Source of the DNA: a phage
Direction: 5' to 3' (one strand)
Sequence record: PZ386947.1
DNA length: 64,000 nt
This document shows, one piece after another, positions 32,955 to 37,419 of the stretch (its first letter is position 1; every line of letters begins with the position of its first letter). Below the pieces are notes generated by a model that was not told the DNA's origin, made no database searches, and was given only the letters and a program-made list of their open reading frames with translations. The position numbers were made by a program, and so were the translations under genes.

Positions 32955-33280
32955 TTAAACCATCCTTTAATACGCTGCCACAAAGTTTTCTGTTGAGCTT
33001 TGTTAACACCAATTGAACGAATAACTGGTTGAGATTCCTGGAATTCTTTATAATCAGCAAGGTAAATTTCGTAAGCTGCATCCGTAAATGAACTTATCGC
33101 TGCCATAAAATTATTGCGAATACCTACTGGAGCATCTTTACTTTCACGAATAATCATGTATTTACCAGTCTTAATCTTTACGATAGTTCCAAGATAAGCT
33201 CCATGGTACCAGATGTCCCACCCCTCTTGAGTGGGTTCTGCACAACGACGAAGTTCATTGACAATTTCTAACTTGTTCAT
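32951..33280 (-). CDS. hypothetical protein (arn.x)
   Basis: 109 aa ORF. Confidence 0.4.
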
Positions 33281-33290
33281 TATTTATTCC

Positions 33291-33926
33291 TCACAGTTCA
33301 GATGCTACAGTGATTACAGCTTCAATGTTTTCTACCGAGCGTTTAATGTCAAGATACACATTACCGTTTTTAGCGATTTTACATGACATTCCGATATCAG
33401 TAAATTTCTGAATATGATGTTCCATCATTTTGTATCCAAAAATTCGCATATTTCCATTGTTGTTAATTTCAAAATTACGAATTCCGTGAGTGCGTTTTTC
33501 TAAAATAGCGAGATAGTTACTGCGGTAAGTTTCAACCTTTTTAAGAACAAATCCATTTTCATCTAAAAGTTTTAACATGAAGTCTTTATCTTCTTCCATA
33601 TCAGAAGTAATTTCGCGAGCTTTACGAGTTGCTCGTTTTTTCAGCAGTTCCGGAGCGTTTTCCTGTGCGTATAAAGTTGCTGCATTTGAAATAATATCCT
33701 GAGCTTCACCAGTAATGATTAATCCATCACCAGATTTCTCCACCAGGCCTTTTTTAATCAATACCCCAATATTACTATTAACTACTGCATTACCTAAATC
33801 TGGATGCACCTCACGAACTTCTGCGGCTGTAATGAAATCTTTCTTAGCAATGGTAATTAAAATCGCAGCAGTTTTTTCATTCAGAACATCGTTAGAAGCT
33901 TTGATGATGTAAGTTACTTTAGACAT
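33291..33926 (-). CDS. motA: MotA middle-transcription activator
   Basis: 211 aa; N-terminus MSKVTYIIKASNDVLNEKTAAILITIAKKDFITAAEVREVHPDLG recognised as T4 MotA. Confidence 0.85.
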   Translation of the reverse strand: MSKVTYIIKASNDVLNEKTAAILITIAKKDFITAAEVREVHPDLGNAVVNSNIGVLIKKGLVEKSGDGLIITGEAQDIISNAATLYAQENAPELLKKRATRKAREITSDMEEDKDFMLKLLDENGFVLKKVETYRSNYLAILEKRTHGIRNFEINNNGNMRIFGYKMMEHHIQKFTDIGMSCKIAKNGNVYLDIKRSVENIEAVITVASEL

Positions 33927-34031
33927 TTTAATCTCCGTTTCAGTTCATTTATTTGATAGGTCTATAGTATCATGTTTAAAGCAGAAGTAAACACTTTTTT
34001 GCACTCTTTTTCAAGAGCTCTAATAAAGTAC

Positions 34032-34259
34032 TTACTTAATGTTCAGATTACGAACTTCGATTTCGTCTTCATGGGCAAAATCAAACTGTTTGAATTCTGT
34101 GTCACCTTTAAATTTAAAAATCATTGTGAAGAAAGTCAGAACACCAGGTTTTTCTTCACGAACTCCACAGATATCATATTCAATACCATCTACAACCAGT
34201 TTGTTAGCAGTCAGAGCATTTTTAGCTTTAACGATTTCGTTTTCGATTTTAAATTTCAT
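34032..34259 (-). CDS. hypothetical protein
   Basis: 75 aa ORF with GGAGATACAAAA Shine-Dalgarno; early promoter GTTTAC...TGGTACTATAC at about 34300-34340 upstream. Confidence 0.4.
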   Translation of the reverse strand: MKFKIENEIVKAKNALTANKLVVDGIEYDICGVREEKPGVLTFFTMIFKFKGDTEFKQFDFAHEDEIEVRNLNIK

Positions 34260-34363
34260 TTTTTGTATCTCCGGGTTGTTTGTTTCAGTTCATTTATTTG
34301 ATAGTTGTATAGTACCACAGTATGCTTTGGTTGTAAACCGTTTTGTGAAAAAATTTTTGAAAT

Positions 34364-34389
34364 AAAAAAGGGAGAGCCGAGGCTCTCCC
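34364..34389 (-). terminator. intrinsic terminator
   Basis: Stem GGGAGAGCC / GGCTCTCCC followed by U6 on the minus strand. Confidence 0.6.
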
Positions 34390-34394
34390 TAAAA

Positions 34395-34544
34395 TTACTG
34401 CATGACTGTGATAACTGTCATGATAACACGTTGAATTCCGAACGCAAGAAGACCTCCTGCTACGGCAGGAACAACACCTAAACCCGCCAGTAAAATGCCA
34501 CCAGATACTAATGCAGCGCTTGTGATACCAATGAATGGACTCAT
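34395..34544 (-). CDS. small glycine-zipper membrane peptide
   Basis: Hand-translated 49 aa MSPFIGITSAALVSGGILLAGLGVVPAVAGGLLAFGIQRVIMTVITVMQ; ATG overlaps gene 52 stop (ATGA); below ORF-track size cutoff. Confidence 0.4.
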   Translation of the reverse strand: MSPFIGITSAALVSGGILLAGLGVVPAVAGGLLAFGIQRVIMTVITVMQ

Positions 34545-35869
34545 TTGATTTCCTCTAAATCTTTGGTGTATTCTGTAACTACATCAGTAGTTTTCCAATA
34601 TTCGTTTTCTTCTTTTTTGGCTTTAGCTTCTTCAGCAAGTTTCTTTGCTTCGTCGGAAGTCATATGAAAAATGTTCATTCCAACTAGTTTATCAACATAA
34701 GAAGAATACATATCAATTTTAGAAAGTTCTTCGGTCAGTTCTTTGCGAGTTTTACCTTGTACAACAATTTCACCTGAAATTACTTTCTTAATGAAATGTG
34801 CCTTGGCAAAAGCTAAACGAAATGCTGATTCAGTTTCTTTGATTTTGTTATCAATTCGTTTTTGGACATAAGTTTTACGAACTTCAACGAAGTCTTTGAT
34901 TAAATCAACTACATTATCGTAAACTTGCAGCTTTCCTTTCTCATTAATGACGGTAATATTCTGGGAACGACGCTCAATCAACCCGAAGTCTTTCATAATT
35001 TTTGCATGGCGTTCTTCTTCGTTATCGCTCAAAGAGTATTCTTTACGGAATTTAACTTTAAAGCCAAACCCATGCTCACCGCAAGCATCATCCCACGTAA
35101 TAAAGCCTTTATCTTCAAGCGGGTCTAAAATTTTGCTCACGTAAGTTTCACGATCATACTTATACGGAATCTCAGTGATATGCATTTGAGTTCGTGAAGT
35201 AAACTTGTACGTTCCACGAATTTCATATTGACCGTCAATTTCAACGACTTCACCGCGAAATTCTGGAAATTCTACCTTCGGTTTAGTTACTTTCTTTCCT
35301 TGAAGAGCTTGCAATACAGCTTTCTTGACAGAAGAAACACTATGAGGAAGAATATAAGTTGCATAACCAGTTGCAATACCGGAAACACCATTAAGAAGAA
35401 CAGTAGGAATAATAGGCAAATAGAAAGCAGGCGGAATGTGTTCTTTATCTTGATGTACCGGAGCATATTCAGTATCTTTATATACGTTATAGAAATTTTT
35501 ACTTACACGAGCAAAAATATAACGACTTGCTGCTGCTTTTTGGACGGTACGAGAACCAAAGTTTCCTTGACCATCTAACAGAGGAAAGTTATTATTCCAA
35601 GTATTAGCCATCAAAGCACCTGCGTCTTGTGCAGAGTTTTCACCATGATGATATCCAAGGTCTGCTACACCACCTGCAATAGAAGCGAGTTTGTGAAACT
35701 TATCTTTATTTCCTCGTGCCAAATCAAGAGCTCGAGCAATAACAAATCGTTGAACTGGCTTAAATCCATCAATCATATTTGGGATAGCACGATTTTCAAC
35801 CGTGTACATAGCATAAGCCAATGCTTCATTATCAATGATACTTTTTAAATCACGATTATTCAGTTGCAT
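34541..35869 (-). CDS. 52: DNA topoisomerase II medium subunit gp52
   Basis: 442 aa as in T4 gp52; GyrA-like segment with catalytic-Tyr region. Confidence 0.9.
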   Translation of the reverse strand: MQLNNRDLKSIIDNEALAYAMYTVENRAIPNMIDGFKPVQRFVIARALDLARGNKDKFHKLASIAGGVADLGYHHGENSAQDAGALMANTWNNNFPLLDGQGNFGSRTVQKAAASRYIFARVSKNFYNVYKDTEYAPVHQDKEHIPPAFYLPIIPTVLLNGVSGIATGYATYILPHSVSSVKKAVLQALQGKKVTKPKVEFPEFRGEVVEIDGQYEIRGTYKFTSRTQMHITEIPYKYDRETYVSKILDPLEDKGFITWDDACGEHGFGFKVKFRKEYSLSDNEEERHAKIMKDFGLIERRSQNITVINEKGKLQVYDNVVDLIKDFVEVRKTYVQKRIDNKIKETESAFRLAFAKAHFIKKVISGEIVVQGKTRKELTEELSKIDMYSSYVDKLVGMNIFHMTSDEAKKLAEEAKAKKEENEYWKTTDVVTEYTKDLEEIK

Positions 35870-35873
35870 AAAT

Positions 35874-36014
35874 TTACCATACTAGTGAATGTAGTGCCAT
35901 AATAACATCAGAAATGAAAAGCACGACTTGAATTAATCCGAACATTATTCCGTAATATAATGCTATCAATAAAATAGCAAGGGCTAATGAATAGCCCAAG
36001 ATTTTCTTAATCAT
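35874..36014 (-). CDS. small hydrophobic membrane peptide (52.1-like)
   Basis: Hand-translated 46 aa MIKKILGYSLALAILLIALYYGIMFGLIQVVLFISDVIMALHSLVW; ATG overlaps ac stop. Confidence 0.35.
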   Translation of the reverse strand: MIKKILGYSLALAILLIALYYGIMFGLIQVVLFISDVIMALHSLVW

Positions 36015-36165
36015 TAGTAGATAACAACACAAATGTTAAATATGCACACATACCCTGAGCTAAAGCTTGCGAAAACACACTGCTGGCATCAATACAGATA
36101 GTTAAAACACATGCTACTATCCAACAAATAAATGAAATAACTCCTAATAATTTTGCAATATTCAT
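36007..36165 (-). CDS. ac: small membrane protein (ac-like, acridine sensitivity locus)
   Basis: Hand-translated 52 aa MNIAKLLGVISFICWIVACVLTICIDASSVFSQALAQGMCAYLTFVLLSTND; GAGGA Shine-Dalgarno; position between stp and gene 52 as in T4. Confidence 0.5.
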   Translation of the reverse strand: MNIAKLLGVISFICWIVACVLTICIDASSVFSQALAQGMCAYLTFVLLSTND

Positions 36166-36172
36166 ATTTTCC

Positions 36173-36253
36173 TCACTGGCGTCCGAAGACGCCTTTAGTT
36201 TTAAGATTATTACGATAGAACTGCATCACGTGTTCGTTGTGGAAATTACTCAT
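36173..36253 (-). CDS. stp: Stp peptide (activator of host PrrC anticodon nuclease / anti-restriction)
   Basis: Hand-translated 26 aa [26 protein letters not shown], which matches the T4 Stp peptide as I recall it; ATG overlaps ndd stop (TAATG). Confidence 0.75.
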
Positions 36254-36711
36254 TAATATGCCTGCAAAACGAATTTAAAGTTATCAGCCAACATACGGTT
36301 CATTTCTTCAAGTGTTTGATACTCGGAATGATGATTACGGGTAAACGCCAAAGCTAACTGACCTTTACCAAATCCTGTCGTCAGAGGTTTCATCTTAGAA
36401 GCAGGCAGATAAAATACTGTGTATACCATATTGTTATTTGCAATAGTACGTGCAAGCTGAGACCGACGTTGACGAATATGACTTAGAACTGCACTGAATC
36501 CTTGCTTAGAACGCTGATTACCTACATAAAATCGTGCAGACACACATGGATTACTAAATGGACGACCATCTAATTTACTTACTAAAAAGTAAAATCCAGG
36601 TTTAGATAAAATATCTTTATGCGGAGTTCCTAAAAACCACTCACCACCCTTGATTGTACCAATAACAGTAGCGCCTGCGTTGTTCAGATCAGTAACAGTC
36701 ATGTATTTCAT
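36253..36711 (-). CDS. ndd: Ndd nucleoid disruption protein
   Basis: Trimmed to ATG at 36711 ([13 protein letters not shown]...) with AGAGGA Shine-Dalgarno, 152 aa (T4 Ndd about 151); position between denB and stp. Confidence 0.65.
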
Positions 36712-36769
36712 ATTAATTTCCTCTAAATTATTTTCTACTCCAAGGCCGCATGAATACGCGGCCATTAAA

Positions 36770-36985
36770 TTAATCGTCGCAGTCGACGCTCAATTCCCAA
36801 AACTCTTCTACAGTATAAGTTTCAGTATCATTTTCAATACAGAAACGTTCATTACTGTTATTTGCTAAAGTAGCATTAACTGTCGGTTTCTCGCTAGTGC
36901 TCTTAAGAGGTGAAATACGAATTAACTGATCACCGTTATCTAAACAGAAAATTTCACCAACTTTTACATCTTTAAAACTTTTCAT
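36770..36985 (-). CDS. hypothetical protein (ndd.x)
   Basis: 71 aa ORF. Confidence 0.35.
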
Positions 36986-37100
36986 AATTCACCTCAAGGA
37001 GTATAAAATCCAAATGCAGTTGTTGACCATCCCATCCAATACGGAAAATTTGCACCAATGTAAAACATAAGAATATAAAACCAAATGTTTAGTAAATTCA

Positions 37101-37319
37101 TCATTTTACACCATTCCAAATTGTTTCAACTACGGATTTTAAACCATTCTGATGAATATCCATTCCGACTACCGCCATCAAATAGATTCCAACTACAACT
37201 GAACCTAAGGCAAAAATCAGCATGAAAATGAATAAAGCCGGAAAAATATTATCGAAAAACCATTCAATAAATGTAAAAGCACTGCGTTTACGCTTCATAT
37301 TTTCCTCACATAAATCCAA
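37101..37319 (-). CDS. small membrane protein
   Basis: 72 aa with two hydrophobic segments. Confidence 0.35.
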   Translation of the reverse strand: MDLCEENMKRKRSAFTFIEWFFDNIFPALFIFMLIFALGSVVVGIYLMAVVGMDIHQNGLKSVVETIWNGVK

Positions 37320-37419
37320 AGTAAACGTTTAATACATCAATCATTAAAACGATTGGGAATATACTCAAAACTATTAGTATTATAACTACATTCCATATAG
37401 CTTTAACAATCTTTTTCAT
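37306..37419 (-). CDS. small membrane peptide
   Basis: Track ORF trimmed to ATG at 37419 (MKKIVKAIWNVVIILIVLSIFPIVLMIDVLNVYFGFM), GGAGGAACAGAAA Shine-Dalgarno, early promoter upstream. Confidence 0.35.
   Translation of the reverse strand: MKKIVKAIWNVVIILIVLSIFPIVLMIDVLNVYFGFM

Follow-up and report, generated by a model that had tools for sequence, protein, structure and literature searches.

Do the small hydrophobic reading frames that flank gene 52 in a T4-like phage encode proteins, and if so, what would these proteins do? The question is raised by sequence record PZ386947.1, a stretch of phage DNA of 64,000 nt ("the window" always means the whole of it), in which a sequence-only reading had picked out three small hydrophobic peptides around gene 52 and the 26-residue peptide Stp. 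Sequence comparison identifies the four open reading frames (ORFs) as the catalogued T4 genes motA.1, 52.1, ac and stp, which are already known, and indicates that all four are protein-coding genes under purifying selection. The region is very probably a T4-type early block, ndd-stp-ac-52.1-52-motA.1, whose small genes are real and in which MotA.1 and gp52.1 would be accessory membrane micro-proteins.

Gene identity and selection on the reading frames

The four ORFs were recovered on the minus strand at exactly the coordinates and lengths first proposed for them. Stp is identical to T4 Stp, the activator of the host PrrC anticodon nuclease, at 26 of 26 residues, shows no difference of substance from it, and scores 75.3 bits against PF08133 (Nuclease_act; cutoff 25). 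gp52.1 has three differences from its T4 counterpart (NP_049876; PF24129; phrog_3595), all of them conservative, and matches PF24129 (DUF7396) with 78.3 bits (cutoff 27) over profile positions 1-46 of 46. MotA.1 shares 48 of 49 residues (98%) with T4 MotA.1 (NP_049874), the difference being S16G, and matches phrog_3487 over its full length with an expect value (E) of 7e-31; its PF26886 assignment is the precomputed one of the identical protein, the Pfam library searched here being without a PF26886 model. Ac is the T4 acridine sensitivity protein (51 aa) with one Thr inserted three codons ahead of the stop and is otherwise identical to it; it matches phrog_2501 (E=3.7e-25), gave no match in the Pfam search and is encoded between stp and 52.1.

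The arrangement of the genes agrees as well. In T4, as here, motA.1 encodes 49 aa, overlaps the gene 52 stop codon by ATGA and is followed by a terminator region, and 52.1 encodes 46 aa, overlaps ac by 8 nt and lies 4 nt ahead of gene 52. A 75-aa ORF stands between motA.1 and motA in the window, whereas T4 has a 127-nt gap at this place; nothing essential differs. When positions 33200-37400 (4.2 kb) were used as nucleotide query, Shigella phage CM8 (Tequatrovirus) was 100% identical and many further T4-like phages were 98-99.5% identical. In the annotation of the T4 reference genome, the order is likewise ndd, stp, ac, 52.1, 52 and motA.1. The view that only Stp and ac are classical therefore cannot be kept: motA.1 and 52.1 are in the T4 annotation too, and both belong to Pfam and PHROG families.

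Selection was examined in a comparison set from IMG/VR, made up of 41 loci that contain gene 52 homologues whose gp52 is 100% to 47% identical. In-frame stops were absent from all homologous loci of the four genes (9 for motA.1, 28 for 52.1, 11 for ac and 8 for stp). The ratio of nonsynonymous to synonymous substitution rates (dN/dS) was taken from within-clade, unsaturated pairs only (proportion of synonymous differences, pS, <0.45), because the pooled pairs were saturated; the corresponding pN/pS pooled over all pairs, with pS at about 0.6-0.68, was misleading and was dropped. dN/dS was 0.058 for motA.1 (7 nonsynonymous and 38 synonymous pairwise changes; 1 against 17 in one pair of homologues), 0.28 for 52.1, 0.18 for ac and 0.018 for stp, with 0.049 for gene 52 as comparison. 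The same alignments shifted by one or two bases contained many stops and gave dN/dS from 0.56 to about 7. The contrast between frames is unambiguous, and on this comparative evidence all four small ORFs are genes. The expected conservation of the reading frames in T-even relatives is thus borne out (no in-frame stops, dN/dS 0.02-0.28), and the frames come with credible translation signals.

It is this frame-specific purifying selection that raises the four ORFs above chance; conserved synteny and the translation signals add to it. Presence and hydrophobicity of an ORF are by themselves no better than chance in this T-rich DNA. The 5.5 kb around the locus holds 76 ORFs of at least 20 aa. One of the alternative-frame ORFs within gene 52 (35287-35466, minus strand) encodes 59 very hydrophobic residues and is open in 16 of 40 loci. 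It was used as a negative control and gave a dN/dS of 1.21, and is therefore a by-product of gene 52 conservation and no gene.

On the minus strand, in the direction of transcription, the order is ndd, stp, ac, 52.1, 52, motA.1, a terminator, the 75-aa ORF and motA. The features of the block are as follows.

36253-36711, minus strand: ndd, 152 aa, preceded by a strong Shine-Dalgarno sequence (SD)
36173-36253, minus strand: stp, a 26-aa soluble peptide; PF08133, 100% identity to T4 Stp
36178-36193, minus strand: mRNA hairpin GGCGUC-UUCG-GACGCC, in the last stp codons and just ahead of the ac SD
36170-36174, minus strand: SD of ac (GAGGA), overlapping the stp stop codon
36007-36165, minus strand: ac, a 52-aa hydrophobic peptide; phrog_2501
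35874-36014, minus strand: 52.1, a 46-aa hydrophobic peptide; PF24129 (DUF7396)
34541-35869, minus strand: gene 52, DNA topoisomerase II medium subunit, 442 aa, one residue different from T4 gp52
34551-34555, minus strand: SD of motA.1 (GAGGA), made by codons of the conserved gp52 C-terminal K-D-L-E-E
34395-34544, minus strand: motA.1, a 49-aa Gly/Ala-rich hydrophobic peptide; PF26886 (Phage_T4_Y16H), phrog_3487
34369-34390, minus strand: intrinsic terminator, a 9-bp stem with six GC pairs followed by TTTTTTATTTC

Two of the starts have an upstream alternative. The 52.1 frame contains a TTG at 36032 that is not conserved as a start, and the 46 aa are counted from the ATG. The ndd frame is open for 18 codons further upstream (36712-36765, minus strand), to an ATG at 36765 that would yield 170 aa; the start of the 152-aa product is the real one, because the ATG at 36711 is the one with the strong ribosome-binding site in front of it and two close relatives (L005 and L006) lack the extension.

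Junctions and translation signals

The genes had been described as all linked by overlapping start and stop codons. This is correct for three of the five junctions, namely ndd/stp (1 nt, TAATG), ac/52.1 (8 nt, ATGATTAA, with the 52.1 ATG embedded in the last ac codons) and 52/motA.1 (4 nt, ATGA); the other two have gaps, of 7 nt between stp and ac and of 4 nt between 52.1 and 52. Predicted duplexes with the 3′ end of 16S ribosomal RNA are strong for ndd (-6.0 kcal/mol), ac (-6.5 kcal/mol) and motA.1 (-6.0 kcal/mol) and weak for stp (-2.5 kcal/mol) and gene 52 (-2.8 kcal/mol), while 52.1 has no SD (+0.9 kcal/mol). Ribosomes can load at the three strong SDs, and stp, 52.1 and perhaps gene 52 would, as far as the sequence indicates, be translated by ribosomes arriving from the upstream cistron. 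Translational coupling is favoured for these three because their SD is weak or absent and their start lies on or beside the preceding stop. Translation of 52.1 is probably coupled to that of ac.

A terminator begins 4 nt past the motA.1 stop codon, which makes motA.1 the last gene of the transcription unit. Transcripts of motA.1, 52.1, ac and stp have been classed as early (PMC9697503, Table S2). A literature search found no ribosome profiling of T4. The strict MotA-box pattern of middle promoters did not match anywhere upstream of gene 52 on the minus strand; an imperfect candidate within 52.1 (TGCTTTTCA, 10 nt, TATTAT, about 35900-35924) overlaps highly conserved codons and is not claimed.

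The hairpin at the end of stp has a perfect UUCG tetraloop, encodes G-V-F-G-R and lies directly ahead of the ac ribosome-binding site. Every one of its nucleotides, third codon positions included, is invariant in 8 of 8 stp loci, and third positions elsewhere in stp vary. This invariance suggests that the RNA is constrained as well as the peptide.

Predicted membrane peptides and their possible roles

The hydrophobic character ascribed to MotA.1, gp52.1 and Ac is confirmed by a grand average of hydropathy (GRAVY) of 1.42-1.80; Stp, in contrast, is hydrophilic (-1.03). MotA.1 (GRAVY 1.61) contains 8 Gly and 6 Ala, and R39 is its sole charged residue. The AlphaFold2 model made from an 18-sequence alignment of two clades predicts a helical hairpin (helices 3-19 and 24-48), with a mean predicted local distance difference test score (pLDDT) of 92. 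gp52.1 (GRAVY 1.80) is Lys-rich at its N-terminus and nearly invariant among homologues in its C-terminal half (Y20 to W46); AlphaFold2 predicts a single continuous helix from 2 to 45 for it (pLDDT 96.7). Composition and models lead us to infer that all three hydrophobic peptides are integral micro-proteins of the inner membrane; MotA.1 would insert as a two-helix hairpin and gp52.1 as a single long helix.

The T4 label of MotA.1, "predicted periplasmic protein", appears unsupported in view of the hairpin model and of a cleavage site that is not conserved; it probably stems from the signal-peptide-like N-terminus. A signal peptide cleaved after A27-V28-A29 was considered and rejected, as there is no charged N-region and the AxA is out of register in the diverged clade. 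A lipoprotein reading, raised by the Cys at position 28 of some homologues, was also rejected, this Cys not being conserved.

Bacteria possess small inner-membrane regulators such as AcrZ, MgtS and MgrB, which are about 30-50 aa long and have one or two hydrophobic helices. The phage peptides resemble them in size and helices; Pfam and profile searches found no sequence relation, and the likeness is an analogy of how they might work. By this analogy, MotA.1 and gp52.1 would be non-essential, conditionally useful accessory micro-proteins, which would most likely bind and modulate a larger host or phage membrane protein and not form lethal pores. Stp, soluble and of 26 aa, acts on the host EcoprrI-PrrC system.

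Experimental data on the locus come from several studies. Knockdown by CRISPRi-ART scored motA.1, 52.1, ac and stp as "Not Fit", meaning that T4 fitness was unchanged, and gene 52 as "Fit", meaning that its knockdown was deleterious (PMC11879866). A T4 deletion extending from gp52.1 to rIIB is viable (PMC9712115). Ac is the only one of the three hydrophobic peptides studied so far: it sensitises infected cells to acridines, and insertion into the membrane with impairment of AcrAB-TolC efflux has been proposed (bioRxiv 10.1101/2025.06.30.662393). According to the same study, the form with the additional Thr is a common natural variant, known for phage PP01, and does not alter acriflavine sensitivity. 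A literature search found no functional study of MotA.1 or gp52.1.

Several points weigh against the reading of these genes as coding for accessory membrane micro-proteins. The counts behind the dN/dS values are small, and the pairwise comparisons are few and non-independent. Membrane insertion and topology are predictions, and the bind-and-modulate mode is an analogy and not a result. MotA.1, gp52.1, Ac and Stp went undetected by shotgun mass spectrometry in one proteome dataset (PMC9697503, Table S2), which is expected because their tryptic peptides comprise 39, 42 and 47 hydrophobic residues. Blocking the 52.1 ribosome-binding site gave no phenotype and the deletion is viable, which suggests that gene 52 is not strictly dependent on 52.1 translation.

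TisB and HokB, which are type I toxins, and the glycine-zipper channel peptides are small peptides that form pores or depolarise membranes. Such a role against the host had been suggested for MotA.1, described as a glycine-zipper peptide, and might be extended to gp52.1. The patterns that define a glycine zipper are (G/A/S)xxxGxxxG or GxxxGxxx(G/S/T) within a membrane helix. MotA.1 contains neither of them and has no GxxxG; its small-xxx-small repeats are confined to the runs G6-A10-S14 and G23-A27-G31. It is the 46-aa peptide that has such a motif: gp52.1 contains a canonical AxxxGxxxG (A18xxxG22xxxG26), in which G26 is replaced by Ala in some homologues. The peptide that occupies the position of MotA.1 in one related phage group also has a true motif (GLATGLAIG, GxxxGxxxG). 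What the T4-type peptides share with the known toxins is shortness, hydrophobicity and small residues, of which MotA.1 is rich, and MotA.1 is without homology to them: it matches only its own Pfam family (E up to 1), and among 1.84 billion representative proteins a profile search recovered neither bacterial nor toxin relatives, only six clusters (at 50% identity) whose members are all exactly 49 aa. A Foldseek search of the MotA.1 model against the PDB gave no significant match (all E >3). The top match was to the membrane-inserting region of an alpha-pore-forming toxin (E=3.6, non-significant), and the fold search is uninformative because a 49-residue hairpin is too small.

The biology of the genes also speaks against a toxin. 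Genes of this block are early ones, and a phage that collapsed the membrane potential early would presumably deprive itself of energy. The products of motA.1, 52.1, ac and stp are dispensable in T4, where their knockdown was neutral for phage fitness in both directions (PMC11879866). The studied neighbour, Ac, acts as a modulator of permeability or efflux, and infection proceeds normally while it is made. Beyond hydrophobicity, nothing in MotA.1 and gp52.1 seems to support a toxin role, which we consider improbable.

Gene 52, its small neighbours and their relatives

By tblastn, 459 phage records, almost all of them of coliphage-type T4 relatives, contain MotA.1 with an identity of at least 90%. 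A diverged clade (35-41% identity) is found in Enterobacter and Kosakonia phages, and across clades that are only 35-41% identical 11 positions are invariant and the length of 49 aa is constant. All homologues with examined context, down to about 35-40% identity, are phage-encoded and lie directly after gene 52, with a start on the gene 52 stop or no more than 2 nt from it. gp52.1 homologues (44-46 aa) end 4-11 nt ahead of gene 52 in 28 loci; their range is broader and extends to clades whose gp52 shows as little as about 67% identity. In RB69, ac, 52.1 and 52 are present and motA.1 and stp are absent.

The position of motA.1 coincides with a feature of gene 52 itself. The gp52 C-terminus, K-D-L-E-E/A, is encoded by ...GAnnTnGAGGA..., which amounts to an SD a few bases ahead of the stop; GAGG or GGAGG occurs at the 3′ end of gene 52 in most loci compared, even in some without a downstream ORF. 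In 24 of 40 loci, the window among them, a small hydrophobic ORF begins with an ATG that overlaps the stop codon of gene 52. At least four groups without apparent relation can be distinguished among these ORFs, namely the 49-aa Y16H family, a 34-aa group, a 45-46-aa group and several of 22-26 aa. Purifying selection is clear for two of the groups, the 49-aa Y16H family and the 34-aa group, which has a true GxxxGxxxG (dN/dS 0.07). The 45-aa group has too few changes for a dN/dS judgement, a 23-aa group gave 0.51, and the shortest peptides (22-26 aa) have weak or no sign of constraint. The 3′ end of gene 52 may thus be a conserved translational "landing pad". Either the embedded SD eases the birth and retention of new small ORFs, or function favours a membrane peptide made together with gp52.

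The second of these options can be taken further: MotA.1 and gp52.1, and the other downstream peptides, would be made in fixed proportion to gp52 and act with it as membrane partners that tether or regulate the topoisomerase or the replication complex at the inner membrane, different genera having recruited different peptides. The strict synteny of motA.1 and 52.1 with gene 52 favours this, as does the presence in other genera of unrelated membrane peptides at the coupled position, among them the constrained 34-aa family. Mutations in the topoisomerase genes 39 and 60 moreover give acriflavine resistance, as ac mutations do (bioRxiv 10.1101/2025.06.30.662393). A literature search found nothing in open access on whether gp52 or gp39 associates with membranes. 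Fractionation studies of the 1970s reportedly placed both proteins in membrane fractions. On the other side, RB69-type phages and several clades have gene 52 without a downstream peptide, knockdown of motA.1 or 52.1 does not mimic the fitness defect of gene 52 (PMC11879866), and T4 lacking 52.1 through rIIB is viable (PMC9712115). A simpler explanation of the shared position is the SD that lies, as it happens, in the codons for the conserved gp52 C-terminus. We regard the partnership as unlikely.

That the peptides themselves are immaterial, their ORFs being coupling devices, by-products of the SD embedded in gene 52 or untranslated chance ORFs, is hardly credible: 52.1 has no SD and gene 52 a weak one, the gp52 C-terminal codons supply an SD constitutively, also in loci without a following ORF, T-rich DNA such as this yields hydrophobic ORFs by chance, and the 22-26-aa peptides are little or not constrained, but the amino acid sequences are under frame-specific purifying selection, with the fixed length and invariant positions of MotA.1 and the nearly invariant C-terminal half of gp52.1. 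The reading as accessory membrane micro-proteins is preferred to all three alternatives.

Annotation of these genes is uneven. Small genes are indeed missed by ORF callers, as the sequence-only reading had supposed, but those missed most are 52.1 and the "classical" stp, and MotA.1 is usually called. Many of the sampled records have no annotated feature where 52.1 matches. Only a single sampled record gives stp its name, and most sampled Tequatrovirus genomes leave this gene unannotated; the CM8 record annotates motA.1 and ac and omits 52.1 and stp. MotA.1 is frequently mislabelled as "transcriptional regulator", "topoisomerase" or "flagellar motor protein MotA", because names have been propagated from the gene name and from its neighbours. 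One mislabelled MotA.1 record is filed under Shigella flexneri.

Further small ORFs were noted in the neighbourhood. In Enterobacter-phage-type and metagenomic clades the MotA.1 homologue is followed by a second, overlapping hydrophobic ORF of 25-39 aa that ends in (E/D)Y(F/L/I)F (L010 3954-4034, L043 3954-4034, L046 3147-3224, L049 3057-3176); it is absent from the window, where the terminator directly follows motA.1. Which small membrane-peptide genes lie between ndd and 52.1 varies across T4-like genera (L008-L014, L021-L027, L040-L044); their products are Ac-type, 52-54 aa with "VFIELI", 57-60 aa ending in ERL or ERI, or 43-44 aa. As a rule, these genes form chains through overlapping stop and start codons, and the one that comes before 52.1, whichever it is, overlaps the 52.1 start.

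Stp-like peptides were also found in phages of about 40-50 kb that are unrelated to T4 (records H145-H152). Shigella phage Sf12 (MF158039.1 45894-45965) has a match of 70.8% over 24 residues (E=1e-5), and weaker matches, mostly unannotated, occur in many Salmonella and Citrobacter phage records.

The 75-aa ORF between motA.1 and motA (phrog_10955; 34032-34259, minus strand) is bracketed by a 36-nt direct repeat whose copies are 92% identical (33937-33972 and 34282-34317), one directly ahead of motA and the second directly ahead of the ORF. A promoter-like site lies nearby (34337-34309). From these repeats and this site, the ORF looks like the insertion of a promoter-carrying cassette.

As a discovery the locus carries low weight, as the T4 reference annotation and the Pfam or PHROG libraries already contain all four genes. 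Its practical value lies with deposited T4-like genomes, in which stp and 52.1 are routinely missed and MotA.1 is often misnamed. The comparative evidence is clean that MotA.1 and gp52.1, two micro-proteins of the best-studied phage, are constrained proteins and not annotation noise. Only their rigid linkage to gene 52 might justify work at the bench, for which it offers a concrete and testable lead.

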